A stretch of DNA of 16,514 bases from a virus (lineage: Duplodnaviria > Heunggongvirae > Uroviricota > Caudoviricetes), in IMG/VR virus record IMGVR_UViG_2681813234_000010, positions 1-16,514 of that record. One strand, 5' to 3'. This document shows, in pieces, positions 2,579 to 16,514 of this stretch (its first letter is position 1; every line of letters begins with the position of its first letter). Both the position numbers and the translations under genes were made by a program. Under the pieces are notes generated by a model that searched no databases, was not told where the DNA came from, and was given only the letters and a program-made list of their open reading frames with translations.

Positions 2579-3079
2579 ATGAAAAAGGAAAAAAGAAATG
2601 ACCTAAAGGGTCAGGAATTACCACATGTAAAAGAAGCACTACGAGTATGGAATAACTTTCACTCAAGAGTGCGTAATAACATCAATTATAGTACTGTTAC
2701 CATCTGCGATGACTGGTATCGGTTTAGTAATTTTTATTATTGGTATGTTGAAAATGTTGTTGATGGTTGGCATTTAGATAAAGACATATTAGGAGGTAAT
2801 GAGTACAGCCCAAGTAACTGCATCTTTGTACCGAGAGAAGTAAATCAATTGTTCCGTAAAGCACCAACGTCATTATCAACCGGTGTTGTCGTTAATCATA
2901 AGGGCTATCAAGCACAAGCAACATTTGATAAGAAAGTACATAAGTTTGGGACATACCCAACGATAGAAGAAGCTCATGCTGCTTATGTTATTGGGCGTAA
3001 ATCATATATCTATAAACTATCGCAGAAGTATAAAGCATATCCAAAACTTAGTGCGGTACTATTACAAAAATCAAAATAA
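2579..3079 (+). CDS. HNH-type endonuclease-like protein with a C-terminal AP2-like DNA-binding domain
   Basis: ATG at 2579 with AAGGA 6 nt upstream. Residues WHLDKDILGGNEYSPSNCIFVPREVN match an HNH_3-style H...N...N motif. The downstream GYQAQATFDKKVHKFGTYPTIEEAHAAY resembles an AP2 domain, a pairing common in phage homing-endonuclease-like proteins. Confidence 0.55.
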   Translation: MKKEKRNDLKGQELPHVKEALRVWNNFHSRVRNNINYSTVTICDDWYRFSNFYYWYVENVVDGWHLDKDILGGNEYSPSNCIFVPREVNQLFRKAPTSLSTGVVVNHKGYQAQATFDKKVHKFGTYPTIEEAHAAYVIGRKSYIYKLSQKYKAYPKLSAVLLQKSK

Positions 3080-4403: not shown

Positions 4404-5138
4404 TCAACTCAATAAAATTTCCATACTTGTGGGTGAAAACATACGATAGCTGATAATGTCACCTACATTGAAATTTGTTTGGAAAAAACTTCTAAGATCT
4501 GTTCCTCCCATGATTCTAGGTACTTTATTAGTGTTTGCCGTTCTGTTAATGATTGCAGTGAGGCTTGTATTGGTGCTGGAGTTAGTTATTTTTATTCTTG
4601 CACCATCTTCTCCAAACTCATGACTGGCAGCCACGGTAACGTTGAAAAATCCTCTTTGCCAATATGTATTAGCCATTCTGAAATTGTAAGTCGGGCTTGA
4701 TTTCTCTGAAGTGACAATTTCTATGTAATCTGTCGTGATTATCTTTTCCTGATAACCATTCCACTCAGGCTGTAGTACTCTAATTATGTCATCTTCTAAT
4801 GCAGCAGCTAGGTTTAAGTGAAATTGACCATAGTGCATTAATCCATTATCGGGTAAAACAAAAATGTCTACCGCTTCATTGTTTTTTAGATGCCTAATAA
4901 TATTCGCGTTGTTTTTTATATTTGTTGATTGAGTAGGGCCTGGCATAGAATAATGATACATTCTACGTTTAAGTAAACGAGTAGTTTTGCCTACATATTT
5001 TACCTGACCATCACAAATGAACGCATAAAGATTATTTTTGACATCTGAGTGAGAAGGTTCAAGTGTAAATTGTAGTTTTTCGCCATTGAGTTCCCAAAAG
5101 CCAATTTTAATAAATCCAATTTCAAGTAATCTATTCAT
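4404..5138 (-). CDS. GIY-YIG nuclease-domain protein with an unrecognised ~110-aa C-terminal domain
   Basis: ORF of 244 aa. Residues LYAFICDGQVKYVGKTTRLLKRRMYHY match the GIY...YIG core with the conserved Arg. Downstream, AAALEDDIIRVLQPEWN matches the conserved Glu and Asn region (compare UvrC ALLLEHNYIKLYQPRYN). The start ATG overlaps the stop of the upstream gene (ATGAATAG on the minus strand). Confidence 0.65.
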   Translation of the reverse strand: MNRLLEIGFIKIGFWELNGEKLQFTLEPSHSDVKNNLYAFICDGQVKYVGKTTRLLKRRMYHYSMPGPTQSTNIKNNANIIRHLKNNEAVDIFVLPDNGLMHYGQFHLNLAAALEDDIIRVLQPEWNGYQEKIITTDYIEIVTSEKSSPTYNFRMANTYWQRGFFNVTVAASHEFGEDGARIKITNSSTNTSLTAIINRTANTNKVPRIMGGTDLRSFFQTNFNVGDIISYRMFSPTSMEILLS

Positions 5139-5877
5139 GTATGACCTTCTTTCGAACTATGAATTTGTCAGTGGGGTAATTATTTGAATAGGTAGAAATA
5201 ATAAACGCTGAAACTTTCCGGTGTGTCTCTGTAACCTGATTCTTAAACTCTAAAAATTCAGCAATAGTTAAATCTTTTGCCTGTCGGTCTGCGTGTATCA
5301 GTGAGTCAACTTCAAAATATGAAGAAAGAAATAAGTTGTATATATTCCCATATTCCCGATTAGTGTCCTTAAGGATATTAATGATAGAGCAACTATAGTT
5401 ACTTAATTCAAAACCATTTCTTGGTATTGTATTTAAACTGTTAATTACTGAATAGGAGAGGTTAGCGAACTCATCCATTAAATTATCTAACTTGTGAACC
5501 TCATTTCTTAGTGATTCGTTGATGGCACAATTGTTATTTAATACGCTGATCGATTGTTTGCCCACTGACCAATATAAATTTCTCAAATGGTGGCTGGCAG
5601 AATTAACTTTTGTTAAATTAGTATAAATCGATTCTTCGATAACATTATGAACCACATCATATTGCTTTTGTGCTAACCATTCAGGTGCTTTTTTATACGC
5701 AGCAATCGCTATACCTAAAGTACCAATTGTAGCTAATGAACTCAACCAATCACTTACGCTTCCCCATTCAAAGCCATTAGAATCAGAAAATAGTACTTTA
5801 ATTAAAGCTAATATCGCTACCCATAGAAGTACTATGACGGTAGCAACTAATAATTTGTTCCATCCTTCAACTTTCAC
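5131..5877 (-). CDS. Membrane protein with two N-terminal transmembrane helices and a ~180-aa soluble domain
   Basis: ORF of 248 aa with a probable GTG start at 5877. Hydrophobic segments LLVATVIVLLWVAILALIKVLF and WLSSLATIGTLGIAIAAY. Its stop overlaps the start of the GIY-YIG gene by 8 nt, implying an operon. Confidence 0.55.
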   Translation of the reverse strand: MKVEGWNKLLVATVIVLLWVAILALIKVLFSDSNGFEWGSVSDWLSSLATIGTLGIAIAAYKKAPEWLAQKQYDVVHNVIEESIYTNLTKVNSASHHLRNLYWSVGKQSISVLNNNCAINESLRNEVHKLDNLMDEFANLSYSVINSLNTIPRNGFELSNYSCSIINILKDTNREYGNIYNLFLSSYFEVDSLIHADRQAKDLTIAEFLEFKNQVTETHRKVSAFIISTYSNNYPTDKFIVRKKVIHE

Positions 5878-6049: not shown

Positions 6050-6076
6050 TTGAACTGGTTAACATAGTGGGATAAT
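6050..6076 (+). promoter_or_regulatory. Putative promoter for the HNH / PD-(D/E)xK cassette
   Basis: TTGAAC at 6050-6055, then TG (6068-6069) followed by GATAAT at 6071-6076 (extended -10-like). AGGAG at 6100-6104 precedes the ATG at 6110. Confidence 0.3.
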
Positions 6077-6109
6077 AAGCACCGAAGAAGAACTTCAGCA
6101 GGAGCAGGT

Positions 6110-6838
6110 ATGAACAGAAAGCAATTCATCCAGTCACACGGAGCTACTTGCAGTAACTGGACGTGGAGTTGGTCATTTGTTAACCATGAAAAGAAGATGG
6201 TCATCTTTGGGTCATGGGATGTTGAGAGTGAACAAGAGCGGTCTGTAATACTCCGGGAGAAATGGGAATACAACTCAAACAACAAAAAACAACCGGGATA
6301 CACCCAGGCACTGGAACACATCCGTTTAGCCCATGAAGGCTACGAACTTTACACCTTCAATATGGTTTTCGCAGAACACCCTGAGAATCCTGAAATTGCA
6401 GTAATCAAGGATTTTGAGCGTAAATTAAACAAGCGATATCTTCGTAAAGAAGGTGTTGTTTGGTATGCAGACTTCTTACCTAATCCATTCCCTGATGAAA
6501 TTCCTTCAGGAGAGAGTTTTGTTGAAGGTGCAAAGACTCAAGTAACAGTGAACTACTACGAACGCGATCCAAAGGCCCGACAAGCCTGCATCCAGCATCA
6601 CGGTACTACCTGTAAATGCTGTGGCTTCGATTTTGAGAAGGTCTATGGTACACATGGCCGTGGGTTCATTCATGTACATCACATCAAGCCGCTTCATACG
6701 ATTGGGGAAAACTATGTGGTCAATCCCGTAACAGATATGATCCCATTATGTCCAAACTGCCATGCAATGGTACATCACGGAAGCGAAGTACTTACAATTG
6801 CAGATTTGAAAAAGAAAATGACATTCTGGAGCGAGTAA
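6110..6838 (+). CDS. Zn-finger HNH endonuclease (McrA-like HNH) with an unrecognised ~150-aa N-terminal domain
   Basis: ORF of 242 aa with a good ribosome-binding site. The C-terminus CKCCGFDFEKVYGTHGRGFIHVHHIKPL...DMIPLCPNCHAMVHH is a classic HNH motif with CxxC...CxxCH zinc ligands, as in McrA-type enzymes. The N-terminal domain has no motif I can assign. Confidence 0.7.
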   Translation: MNRKQFIQSHGATCSNWTWSWSFVNHEKKMVIFGSWDVESEQERSVILREKWEYNSNNKKQPGYTQALEHIRLAHEGYELYTFNMVFAEHPENPEIAVIKDFERKLNKRYLRKEGVVWYADFLPNPFPDEIPSGESFVEGAKTQVTVNYYERDPKARQACIQHHGTTCKCCGFDFEKVYGTHGRGFIHVHHIKPLHTIGENYVVNPVTDMIPLCPNCHAMVHHGSEVLTIADLKKKMTFWSE

Positions 6839-7630
6839 ATGGATTTATCACAATTGAGCAACGTCGAATTGATGCAACTGAATCAGTTGACGCTTGATGA
6901 GTTAGAACGACGAGAGGTTATCAGAACCAGAAACAATCCTATCAGTGAGTACACTGAATGGCTGGTTGCGGATAAGATGCAGATGGTACTGGCTGCACCT
7001 AGTACTAAAGGGTATGACGCTACAACAACTGATGATCGAAAAATTCAGATTAAGTCTCGTAAGAATAATTTAAAAAACCAATCATTAATTCTTGGAATTA
7101 TCAGAAATTATGATCTGAACCAATTCGATGAACTCATTGCCGTAATATATAACCATGATTTCTCAATTCGTTATGCCATATCCATACCACATGAATTAGT
7201 GAAGGAATATGGTTTTTATAATGAGCATCAGAATGGGTACACTTTAAGAATAAGCAATTTATTACTTAATGATCCACGTGTAACAGATATCATTGAATTT
7301 ATTGACCCAGACACTGAACGTTCAAAGGAAGATATCACGGTGAAGCCAGATTCAAACACTATCCGGGATGTACAGACAATAGGAATGCAGACGTTTGTTG
7401 AGTACTATCAGTATGTTGAAAGTGGTATGAACACAACTGATCTTGTTGAAAAGATGGTAACTGACCATCCAGAATGGAAGGAAAGTACTGCAAGAACAAA
7501 GGCATCTTCAATGCGAAGAGTATTTAAGAATTGCGACAACGTTGAAGCACTAAAAATCATCTATAAGTCGGATCACCCAGCAATAACGGATGAGATTAAG
7601 AGTAAACTTATGACGCTTTGGGATAAATGA
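6839..7630 (+). CDS. Hypothetical protein with a PD-(D/E)xK-like (Hjc/restriction-endonuclease-fold) motif
   Basis: ATG at 6839 directly abuts the TAA of the HNH gene (TAAATG). EWLVADKMQMVLAAPSTKGYDATTTDDRKIQIKSRK fits an E ... D ... (E/Q)xK nuclease-core pattern. The fold assignment is tentative. Confidence 0.5.
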   Translation: MDLSQLSNVELMQLNQLTLDELERREVIRTRNNPISEYTEWLVADKMQMVLAAPSTKGYDATTTDDRKIQIKSRKNNLKNQSLILGIIRNYDLNQFDELIAVIYNHDFSIRYAISIPHELVKEYGFYNEHQNGYTLRISNLLLNDPRVTDIIEFIDPDTERSKEDITVKPDSNTIRDVQTIGMQTFVEYYQYVESGMNTTDLVEKMVTDHPEWKESTARTKASSMRRVFKNCDNVEALKIIYKSDHPAITDEIKSKLMTLWDK

Positions 7631-7729
7631 ACAAAGTTTTGGTTATATTTTTGACGCAAAAAGATATAATTGTAGTACTTCCACCTTTCGCATTTGGGTA
7701 GGTTTGTTTGGGCGATTGGTGGAAGTGTA

Positions 7730-8219: not shown

Positions 8220-8729
8220 ATGAAACTCGAACATTGGGCAATTCCGATCACTTCATTGGACGGTATGTTACTCGGCGTAGAGCTGTAAACCCGTGTACTG
8301 ATAAACGGTTGCCAGGTACTGATGGGGGCAGGAAAAGAAAGTGAATATATCCGTCACGTGGTCTATCAGAACCAGTTAAGAATGATTCAGGGTAAAGCCG
8401 CATGGTTCAAAGAAAAGGGGCTGTTGTGCGTGCTCAGTACTGGCACAGGTACACGCTATGAAGATCTACCATTCATACGGTACATGGCTGCTGAACCACT
8501 GCTAACGAACGGTTACGACTTAGTTCGACTAAATAGACGGTTCACTGAAGAACACATAGAGCGGCTGATCTTCCCGGTACTCATCAATAACATCATGCAG
8601 TACTGCGACAAGGTGATCGTACAAGTCAGCAGCAATCGAAATCACAGGATTTTACGAGAGTCGGGGGTATGGGCAGTACAGGGAGAGTACAGGCCAATCC
8701 GCTTTGAACAATGCGAACAACTTCTATAG
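8220..8729 (+). pseudogene. EAL-like (possibly YdiV-type degenerate EAL) ORF interrupted by a single in-frame TAA
   Basis: ATG at 8220 opens MKLEHWAIPITSLDGMLLGVEL, then TAA at 8286-8288, and the same frame continues open to 8729 (170 codons in total). The N-terminal xPIxxxxGxxxGVEL and C-terminal WAVQGEY patterns resemble EAL-domain ends. The family assignment is tentative. Confidence 0.35.
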
Positions 8730-9132: not shown

Positions 9133-10287
9133 TCAACGTAGCATGGCTAATGTTCTGGAAATTCTTATTATATCCTTCTCAATATCATCTAAAACAGGAG
9201 TTGAGTTTCTGCTTCGCTCTGCAATTTCTTGCAAAATATATCTATTTAAATGGTTGTTAACATTTTTAGGGTCAAGGTTTTCTGGTGTGGGAACAACACA
9301 GCACTGCCAATAAAAAATCTCATCTTCAAAATGATTTAGCCATTTAGAATGATATTTTTCTTTCGATTTTTTCTTGTTAAGGACATAAATGCTAGCCGCA
9401 GCTACCACATCCGCAATTTGTATACCATGCGTGACTTTAGAATCAGAAAGAATCATTGGCTCAGATAGCTTAAATGTGATCGGGATTTTTTTATCATGAA
9501 AAGTCTCGAACACAATCTCATCATTGCCTATCATCTCATTGAATGAGTCCTGATGAGTAATTAATGGTTTTGAGCTGTCGCATATAGCTCTCAATGTACC
9601 AAACTTACTACTCATATCGCACAGGAGATTATAAAGAGAAGTCGTTGTCAAATCTAATAACCACTTATCAATCCCAGTACCCTCAAGGCCTTCATATTCT
9701 TCTTCAATTATAGAGATGTTATTCTTGGCGAAATCATGAATGTCCATCATAATTTCAGAATTTTTAGAACCAACAACTGGTTCGATAAAACTATTAACCA
9801 ATATTTTACCTCGTGAAAAATCTTCAAATCGCGAATGTAATAGTTCTGAATATTCATCCTTAGCTATTAAAGAAAAATACATTATATTTGAGATGAATAG
9901 GTGAAATTTAAGGTTGTAAAAAATTGAGCTTTTAGCTGCTAATACTGGCTCAAAAATATATTCGAAGAATTTTCCTGAGAGGGCATATTTTTTTTCGTTT
10001 ACAACCACACGCATACGACCACGGAAATGATTAAGTATTTCATCTACGGCTGGTTGAAATCTCTTGCTATTTACGAGAGTGCTACCTTTTAGCTCTTCGG
10101 CTGCGATCGAGTACTTGTTTATTATATAATCAACAAACTGTTTACTTTCCTCATCATCAGTCACGACTGCTGCGTAACTAAAAAAAGGCTGATCTTTTGA
10201 AAGTAAGTTATTACCAGTGAATCCTGATTCATCGAAATATACATTCTTTACCAATTTGGTCATTCCTTTATGAGCTACAATGTGCAT
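9133..10287 (-). CDS. DUF3800-family protein
   Basis: The N-terminal VYFDESGFTG and C-terminal GIQIADVVAAA match the two conserved DUF3800 signature motifs. The start is uncertain: ATG at 10287, ATG at 10263 or TTG at 10254. None has an ideal ribosome-binding site. Confidence 0.6.
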   Translation of the reverse strand: MHIVAHKGMTKLVKNVYFDESGFTGNNLLSKDQPFFSYAAVVTDDEESKQFVDYIINKYSIAAEELKGSTLVNSKRFQPAVDEILNHFRGRMRVVVNEKKYALSGKFFEYIFEPVLAAKSSIFYNLKFHLFISNIMYFSLIAKDEYSELLHSRFEDFSRGKILVNSFIEPVVGSKNSEIMMDIHDFAKNNISIIEEEYEGLEGTGIDKWLLDLTTTSLYNLLCDMSSKFGTLRAICDSSKPLITHQDSFNEMIGNDEIVFETFHDKKIPITFKLSEPMILSDSKVTHGIQIADVVAAASIYVLNKKKSKEKYHSKWLNHFEDEIFYWQCCVVPTPENLDPKNVNNHLNRYILQEIAERSRNSTPVLDDIEKDIIRISRTLAMLR

Positions 10288-10466: not shown

Positions 10467-11030
10467 TTAGCAAAGTACAACACCTATTTCATTTAACGCA
10501 CAATCGCAATGACGGTTTGTCGGACATTCGCATAATTTGAATACTGCATAAGATCCTTTAAGGGTATCGGTTACATACTTGTCCATTTCTTCAACTACAG
10601 ATGATGAGCAATATAAATGAAAACCAACACAGAAAGAATTTCGCATCGGATACTTACATTCTTGTATAGAGTTGAGTTTCAAATGGTCTGCTTGCAATCC
10701 TCTTTTTAAGGCAGATGAACGCTTAGTACATTTCAGCTCAATAAAGATATAGTCTTCAAAAAGGGTATCTTTTTCTCTCATTATTATATCGATTTTTGAG
10801 AGCTTGCTTGCAGGGAAATTATTAGGGTCAAGAAAAGCTGTAACTTCACGTTTAACTTCATATTTTCTTTTTTTGTTAAGGAAGTGCTCAAATTCAATTT
10901 GTAGCCATTTTTCCCAATCATTAGTTTCATTACTGACGAAGGAATACAGACGCCTCTTTATATCTTCATTCTTTAGGAAGCTATTCAGTAACTTTACCAG
11001 TAAAGAAAAATCATTGTTGCGGTCTGACAT
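10467..11030 (-). CDS. Hypothetical Cys-rich protein with a possible PD-(D/E)xK-like core
   Basis: ORF of 187 aa. KIDIIMREKDTLFEDYIFIELKCTK fits a D ... ExK pattern. The C-terminus contains a Cys/His cluster (CVGFHLYC ... CEC ... HCDC), suggesting metal binding. Confidence 0.5.
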   Translation of the reverse strand: MSDRNNDFSLLVKLLNSFLKNEDIKRRLYSFVSNETNDWEKWLQIEFEHFLNKKRKYEVKREVTAFLDPNNFPASKLSKIDIIMREKDTLFEDYIFIELKCTKRSSALKRGLQADHLKLNSIQECKYPMRNSFCVGFHLYCSSSVVEEMDKYVTDTLKGSYAVFKLCECPTNRHCDCALNEIGVVLC

Positions 11031-11044
11031 AGTGATCTCAATAA

Positions 11045-13412
<2,368 letters not shown>

Positions 13413-13415
13413 TAA

Positions 13416-16514
<3,099 letters not shown>

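Follow-up and report, generated by a model that had tools for sequence, protein, structure and literature searches.

The IMG/VR virus record IMGVR_UViG_2681813234_000010, of which we analyzed the whole stretch of 16,514 nucleotides (nt; hereafter the window), is part of a temperate phage of the Caudoviricetes and carries two adjacent nuclease genes, called here gene A and gene B. Gene A (positions 6110-6838, plus strand) is an open reading frame (ORF) for an HNH endonuclease of 242 amino acids (aa), and gene B (6839-7630, plus strand) is an ORF for a 263-aa protein that homology places in the Eco15I subfamily of the BisI endonucleases. We conclude that this locus is probably a mobile operon of two self-sufficient modification-dependent restriction endonucleases, carried as cargo by temperate phages of Enterobacterales. 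An initial annotation, made from the sequence alone, had proposed a phage-borne operon with a restriction-like role, and our analysis supports that view. It had also suggested a novel defense pair. Gene B belongs, however, to the characterized BisI/Eco15I family, and the pair is best read as a combination of two stacked enzymes of known kinds, with no new defense principle.

The gene structure is clear. The junction of genes A and B reads GAG TAA ATG, the stop codon at 6836-6838 abutting the ATG at 6839. A Shine-Dalgarno sequence, AGGAG (6100-6104, plus strand), lies 5 nt ahead of the ATG of gene A, and another, GGAG (6828-6831, plus strand), is found within the end of gene A, 7 nt ahead of the ATG of gene B. 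The abutting stop and start codons, together with this GGAG, make coupled translation of the two genes, as described initially, plausible. The ribosome-binding site of the initial annotation was recovered. The spacing varies among related loci, where the two genes either abut, are separated by 2 nt or overlap. The putative promoter of the initial annotation did not hold up: a consensus scan upstream of gene A returned no sigma-70-like site, and the only candidate found by eye was TTGAAC (6050-6055) followed, after an off-optimal spacer of 15 nt, by GATAAT (6071-6076). That region is outside the conserved cassette, which begins at position 6100 according to megablast comparisons with the Escherichia coli island copies described below. 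Genes A and B are not chance ORFs, since gene A has 4373 database relatives (E ≤ 1e-5) and the close relatives of gene B are conserved over their full length.

Gene B could be assigned to a family by homology. Residues 1-155, its catalytic and recognition domain (6839-7303, plus strand), were aligned without gaps to the crystallized enzymes Eco15I (PDB 8q5m, E = 3e-34) and NhoI (8q5n, E = 2e-19), and the protein matched the PADLOC profile mREase_II (type IIM; 1.3e-62) as well as Pfam DUF6998 (28.4 bits, cut-off 27). E40, D60, Q70 and K72 correspond in this alignment to Eco15I E49, D69, Q79 and K81, the catalytic PD-QxK residues that have been defined by mutants (PMC11347163). In an alignment of the gene B clade, Q70 is invariant and D60 and K72 are nearly so, and R89 and H130, the counterparts of Eco15I R98 and H139, are conserved. 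The E...D...QxK nuclease motif reported initially is thus the catalytic signature of Eco15I, and the second protein of the pair can be regarded as a nuclease; the proposal of an Hjc-like protein of unassigned family was not retained, as the strong BisI-family homology rules out a Hjc/Holliday resolvase. Judging from sequence, gene B is a type IIM endonuclease of the BisI family, Eco15I subfamily, dependent on 5-methylcytosine (5mC) or 5-hydroxymethylcytosine (5hmC).

The C-terminal part of gene B supports the same assignment. Residues ~172-263 (7352-7627, plus strand) form a domain of six helices, confidently predicted in the structure model, that is homologous to the C-terminal domain of Eco15I. 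A profile built on the window-type domain matched residues 186-287 of P0206, an Eco15I-type protein of 290 aa (E = 3.6e-8), and BLASTP of gene B against an Eco15I-type 290-aa protein gave a collinear full-length alignment through the C terminus (E = 9e-51). Because of its homology to Eco15I and NhoI and of the shared C-terminal domain, gene B is considered a further member of a known enzyme subfamily, and by these comparisons it is an orthologue-level relative of a crystallized enzyme. The collinearity with an Eco15I-type protein covers both domains, and Eco15I itself (from E. coli 541-15; PDB 8q5m/8q5o) is, like gene B, an orphan without a methylase on a mobile element of Enterobacterales. 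The length of gene B falls within the range of the 34 Eco15I homologs of 263 to 294 aa noted in 2016 (PMC4926085). The two proteins nevertheless differ: they share ~32% identity over their whole length and roughly 45% within the catalytic domain, and Eco15I proper is mostly plasmid borne and lies behind a helix-turn-helix (HTH) gene in the one locus inspected, whereas gene B lies behind an HNH gene.

The biochemistry of the family gives an idea of what gene B might do. The BisI-family enzymes Eco15I and NhoI cut G5mC/NG5mC only if two to four of its cytosines bear a methyl or hydroxymethyl group, which is recognized in the intact duplex (PMC4926085, PMC11347163). Eco15I and Pan13I cut GCNGC carrying three to four 5mC unaided in vitro (PMC4926085), further BisI enzymes likewise need no partner there (PMC4926085, PMC11347163), and the isolated N-terminal domain of Eco15I is active (PMC11347163). 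Its C-terminal domain did not bind DNA and had no effect on modification sensitivity, and its function was left open by the authors (PMC11347163). Pan13I and the other short BisI enzymes (~150-175 aa) lack the C-terminal domain that gene B has.

Gene A consists of two domains. Its C-terminal domain of ~95 aa (6551-6835, plus strand) is an HNH nuclease of the beta-beta-alpha-Me type that matched Pfam HNH (E = 4.5e-6), PADLOC mREase_IV (4e-8, covering the HNH part only) and EcoKMcrA (PDB 6ghc; E = 6e-7, or 2.4e-8 using the family profile), and it also aligned with ScoMcrA. The PHROG matches are annotated merely as 'HNH endonuclease.' The McrA-type HNH with CxxC...CxxCH ligands recognized in the initial annotation was confirmed: a Cys4 zinc site is formed by C168-x-x-C171 and C214-x-x-C217, and these cysteines, H218 and the predicted catalytic residues H190/H191, N216 and H222 were all invariant in an alignment of 40 sequences of the gene A family. 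The resemblance to EcoKMcrA, an NEco-HNH enzyme encoded on the e14 prophage remnant, was limited to the linker and the HNH domain (gene A ~aa 131/148-232 against McrA 173-273), and the NEco N-terminal domain was not detected in gene A.

The N-terminal alpha/beta domain of gene A (aa 1-126; 6110-6487, plus strand) is a putative modified-base reader. AlphaFold predicted it with a local confidence (pLDDT) of ~90, followed by a low-confidence linker. The separate N-terminal module and its plausible role as a sensor, both put forward initially, were upheld, but not the length of ~150 aa, as the domain spans ~125 aa and the linker a further ~20 aa. The domain contains an invariant motif, C14-x-N-W-x-W-S-W-S-F23, together with invariant F33, G34, W36, W52, H70 and W118, and this cluster of tryptophans and phenylalanines suggests a base-binding pocket. 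No match to it was found in Pfam, NCBIfam, PADLOC or the PDB sequences. Foldseek gave nothing significant, its weak matches including Hjc and EcoRV. The best structural matches were SRA/PUA-like readers of known modification-dependent enzymes, with modest fold similarity, and 'SRA-like reader' is taken as the best, if unproven, assignment.

This architecture is shared with TagI (6ghs), ScoA3IV and VcaM4I (6yex) (PMC6212794, PMC6765204, PMC7897488) and with McrA-type enzymes (PMC6765204, PMC11347163), in that gene A also has a putative reader of about the size given above, a linker and an HNH domain. The SRA-HNH and EVE-HNH type IV enzymes are orphans without a methylase, as is gene A, whose N-terminal domain differs from theirs in having no detectable sequence relationship to SRA or EVE. 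By analogy with them, gene A is predicted to be a type IV-like modification-dependent restriction enzyme. The END nucleases of a recent preprint (PMC12191111) were found to be unrelated to this locus.

Gene A might instead act independently of DNA modification, its N-terminal domain being a degenerate PD-(D/E)xK-like or other DNA-binding domain and the protein a sequence- or structure-specific HNH nickase or a toxin, rendered harmless by low expression or some other control. This would agree with the finding that SRA, EVE and ASCH sequence profiles all failed to match the N-terminal domain. We regard it as rather improbable. There is no conserved D...(D/E)xK triad, as D37 alone comes close to invariance, with no conserved lysine after it, and the invariant aromatic cluster argues for a pocket that binds a base. 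An orphan HNH gene that has neither an immunity partner nor a methylase and is stable in thousands of genomes also fits a modification-dependent enzyme better.

The distribution of the gene A family bears on another possibility, namely, that gene A is a selfish or housekeeping HNH gene of the phage, either a free-standing homing endonuclease or an HNH accessory of the terminase. Gene A is indeed phage borne, and phages often carry HNH genes. Full-length relatives at ~50% identity were nonetheless found in Pseudomonadota, Verrucomicrobiota, Bacteroidota, Planctomycetota and others, and most family members sit in bacterial chromosomes of many phyla with unrelated neighbors. Gene A interrupts no conserved gene. 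It is separated from the small terminase gene by ~4.2 kb with five genes on both strands, the large terminase, being of the lambda GpA type, brings a nuclease of its own, and gene A is of an McrA/restriction-like subtype, unlike the HNH_3/NUMOD-type ORF at 2579-3079. With no homing or packaging context at gene A, a homing or packaging HNH gene appears highly unlikely; a match to a free-standing homing endonuclease had been named initially as one possible refutation.

The genes next to those of the gene A family included integrases, OLD/AAA_15, toxin-antitoxin genes and EcoRII, a defense or mobile context. The immediate neighbors of 53 full-length family loci from other species belong to 61 Pfam families, and the 25 most frequent of these contained neither a methyltransferase nor a conserved partner. 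In 27 other loci (L056-L082), the HNH subtype of gene A is joined to other N-terminal domains of 80 to 300 aa, the HNH domains being 52 to 62% identical to that of gene A in 25 of the 27 loci. Pfam detected one marginal EVE domain (E = 0.003) and one DUF4268 among those N-terminal domains, which suggests that the HNH subtype is modular and combines with many N-terminal domains yet to be described. In a Methylophaga metagenome-assembled genome (MAG; L020, 6001-7575), a gene of the gene A family is split by an insertion of ~840 bp, the N-terminal domain ending at 6438 and the HNH domain resuming at 7282.

We then looked at the recurrence of the pair. Genes A and B were found together in 10 of 5426 complete E. 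coli genomes, one of which has a copy of the window's prophage adjoining yeaG. E. coli MB19 harbors a copy of the pair, 84% identical, in an unrelated island adjoining ffs (one such copy's annotation was inspected). The island copies of E. coli match the window over 6100-7655 only, an interval with no genes other than A and B, indicating that these two move as one cassette. The pair was also present in an element of Enterobacter roggenkampii adjoining yliH, in a related phage with DarTG, whose BisI gene is of the short type and lacks the C-terminal domain, and in many metagenomic and viral contigs. It is thus a discrete cassette found in at least five mobile-element contexts of Enterobacterales, and the co-occurrence elsewhere that had been proposed as a check was observed. 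The identities of the HNH and BisI proteins to those of the window were 96/98, 91/88-93, 86/73 and 68/68%, which represents mostly parallel divergence. No methyltransferase was found in the cassette, in the scanned ORFs of the window or in the annotated contexts (E. coli AREA_C483, MB19, Enterobacter and the DarTG phage).

The pairing also has variants. In contig L089, a BisI gene whose catalytic domain is 77% identical is paired with a distant member of the HNH family (42-56%) across a gap of 187 nt, and in contig L099 a third gene is inserted between the HNH and BisI genes. Short BisI forms (156-165 aa), 68 to 75% identical to the catalytic domain of gene B, occur in Pantoea and relatives, and such forms are also found directly downstream of HNH genes of the gene A family. 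A conserved third component was considered, namely, the membrane protein encoded at 5131-5877, with similar minus-strand genes near BisI genes in L096, L099 and L090. It was rejected, as the tblastn matches were patchy, N-terminal and restricted to few loci.

Each gene is frequently solitary, and neighborhood counts rule out an obligate pair as the default. None of the 53 full-length HNH-family loci from other species had a BisI-domain gene within 6 kb, as determined by tblastn and a family hidden Markov model, and those loci include a 97%-identical copy in Buttiauxella. Conversely, Eco15I-like long forms without an HNH gene were found in four loci (L096, L097, L098 and L110). Eco15I proper (~290 aa) is present in 99 of the 5426 complete E. 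coli genomes, in 71 plasmid and 30 chromosomal places. In L121, a chromosomal locus and the sole one whose annotation was inspected, it lies behind an HTH gene and near AIPR and recombinase genes.

Two of the 53 loci have another small nuclease next to the HNH gene. In a Gemmatimonadetes MAG (L019, 6725-7156), a NOV_C gene (2.8e-22) overlaps the stop codon of the HNH gene on the same strand, and in a Limisphaerales MAG (L023, 6772-7239), an Mrr_cat-like gene (6e-4) lies 40 nt downstream of the HNH-family gene, also on the same strand. An HNH gene followed by another small PD-(D/E)xK nuclease in 2 of 53 loci is too few for a pattern. A distant relationship of BisI with these two nucleases was examined with hhalign and rejected, the probabilities being 0.2 and 0.5 on a scale of 0 to 100.

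Several observations weigh against two enzymes acting independently on the modifications that their families would predict. The tight coupling, the co-transfer and the mostly parallel divergence of genes A and B would also fit a cooperative two-component system, in which one partner depends on the other for recruitment or licensing, or in which a nick by the HNH enzyme and a cut by the PD-QxK enzyme add up to a double-strand break. The L089 locus represents a second, apparently independent pairing and hints at selection for the combination. As for specificity, the methyl-pocket motif of gene B is H130-Q131 (7226-7231) instead of the H139-V140 of Eco15I; Q131 is outside the published (H/R)(V/I/T/M) motif and was invariant in 21 of 21 aligned members of the gene B clade, short forms included. 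From the sequence of this pocket, gene B may have a specificity other than that of Eco15I, and the H-Q variant could shift its preference, for example, towards 5hmC. Lastly, E. coli is usually Dcm+ and Dam+, and a gene A that recognized any 5mC should be toxic in a Dcm+ strain. Given that its hosts include E. coli, gene A presumably ignores C5mCWGG and G6mATC.

Cooperation of the two proteins would explain why abutting or overlapping genes are the rule among the copies, why they travel as a unit among the various contexts while diverging in parallel, and why the pairing was re-created with a distant HNH partner in L089. The two loci from distant phyla in which an HNH gene precedes a NOV_C or an Mrr_cat-like gene could be seen in the same light. 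We hold cooperation to be unlikely. The absence of a BisI gene from all 53 HNH-family neighborhoods examined and the occurrence of BisI/Eco15I-like genes alone argue against it, as does the full activity of Eco15I and Pan13I unaided in vitro (PMC4926085). The pair tolerates an inserted gene and a 187-nt gap, and both short and long BisI forms are paired with HNH genes, so that no dedicated interaction module is evident. Two adjacent nucleases among 53 loci are within the level expected by chance in defense islands.

We therefore keep to two self-sufficient enzymes, for which we propose the following mode of action. By analogy with its characterized relatives, gene B would act as a homodimer with PD-QxK active sites, recognizing GCNGC with several 5mC or 5hmC bases in the intact duplex and cutting inside this sequence. 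The N-terminal domain of gene A probably binds a modified base, most likely flipped into the aromatic pocket, and the zinc-stabilized HNH domain at its C terminus would then cut near that base. As neither enzyme has a methyltransferase partner, both must spare the DNA of the host and confine their attack to foreign DNA that is modified differently. Phages whose genomes contain 5mC or 5hmC would be likely targets, as would DNA entering from hosts that have different C5-methylases. The combination of a sequence-specific reader of dense methylation with a looser reader of single bases would widen the range of invaders affected and make escape harder, and both the lysogen and the prophage would gain from this portable protection.

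Such an operon would mean that enterobacterial temperate phages carry, in a swap-in cargo slot, a double barrier against modified-cytosine DNA. This would be relevant to the host range of 5mC and 5hmC phages (T-even derivatives and Xp12-like phages, for instance) and to plasmid transfer between strains that differ in their C5-methylases. Gene A, from an uncharacterized family with thousands of members in many phyla, a type IV layout and a reader that matches no described family, is a good candidate for a new specificity.

The Eco15I-type C-terminal domain turned out to be widespread. A word-indexed search with this domain alone retrieved 2 proteins only, and an exhaustive profile search was needed, which gave 314 representative clusters. 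The domain is helical and has no Pfam assignment. Many of these proteins are stand-alone forms of 90 to 110 aa. In others the domain is fused to PLD, HNH, NOV_C, HSDR_N, DUF4145, MUG113/T5orf172, DUF559, HEPN, HigB or methyltransferases, and BisI, GIY-YIG-like and Vsr-like domains are further fusion partners. This distribution exceeds what the Eco15I papers report, in which the crystallographers could not assign the domain. It suggests a regulatory or recognition module common to many defense nucleases, and the presence of the domain on many unrelated nuclease and toxin folds points to a common regulatory role. A broader model would combine the two ideas: SRA-like-HNH proteins and small PD-(D/E)xK nucleases (BisI, NOV_C, Mrr-like) would cooperate, one sensing or nicking and the other completing the break, and the C-terminal domain would be a general regulatory or sensor module, binding, for example, a phage protein or an inhibitor. 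Taken as a whole, we find this model doubtful.

Some BisI-like proteins have kept the C-terminal domain and lost their active site. In P0146 (L086-L088), P0152 and P0153 all catalytic residues are replaced, with L or A in place of E40, N or Y in place of D60 and L or I in place of K72. In L086, a related phage, such a catalytically dead protein is encoded in the same cargo slot, behind genes for EAL and GerE proteins, and is followed by another protein of unknown function (268 aa).

The window starts within the gene of a large serine recombinase (1-1236). Its packaging genes, identified from the ORFs and from the annotation of a near-identical E. coli prophage, are those of the small terminase (11069-11617), of the large terminase of the lambda GpA type (11523-13412) and of the portal (13955-15463), the latter near the end of the window. 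The interval between the recombinase and terminase genes is a mosaic cargo region of low GC content (0.33-0.43). The prophage copy in E. coli AREA_C483 (L001), the one adjoining yeaG, is 97.7% identical to the window and riddled with insertion sequences (IS). IS3 fragments and a group II intron (ltrA) lie directly after its BisI-like gene (13554-17034 of L001), whose product is annotated as 286 aa rather than 263 aa, indicating an altered 3' end. The large terminase gene is also disrupted by IS elements, so that this copy is a decaying prophage. No match to the window element was found among isolated phage genomes (INPHARED) at the DNA or protein level, and its known copies are all prophages or metagenomic contigs.

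Other cargo genes surround the pair. Upstream, a minus-strand operon encodes a 244-aa protein with a weak GIY-YIG N terminus (4404-5138; phrog_1111 'endonuclease,' 5.8e-12) and the 248-aa protein with an N-terminal membrane helix mentioned above (5131-5877), the two genes overlapping by 8 nt. This operon (4404-5877) is missing from the otherwise near-identical prophage of AREA_C483. In Salinicola (L042), the HNH-family gene is followed after 33 nt by a homologue of the GIY-like gene (41% identity). The plus-strand ORF at 2579-3079 (166 aa; phrog_953, 1.5e-38, covering the C-terminal part of the profile only) does not share the HNH class of gene A and may be a truncated homing-type endonuclease.

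Downstream, a plus-strand ORF of 135 aa (8322-8729) shows weak similarity to the C-terminal end of PdeB (NCBIfam, 2.2e-5, far under the cut-off), a cyclic-di-GMP phosphodiesterase, and the related phage L086 has a full EAL gene and a GerE regulator in the same cargo region. Two minus-strand genes, for a 384-aa DUF3800 protein (9133-10287; phrog_12991, 8.5e-119) and a 187-aa protein of no family (10467-11030), form the cargo immediately upstream of the terminase genes. The DUF3800 gene of the window was also found alone in E. coli G3/10, with 87.6% DNA identity.

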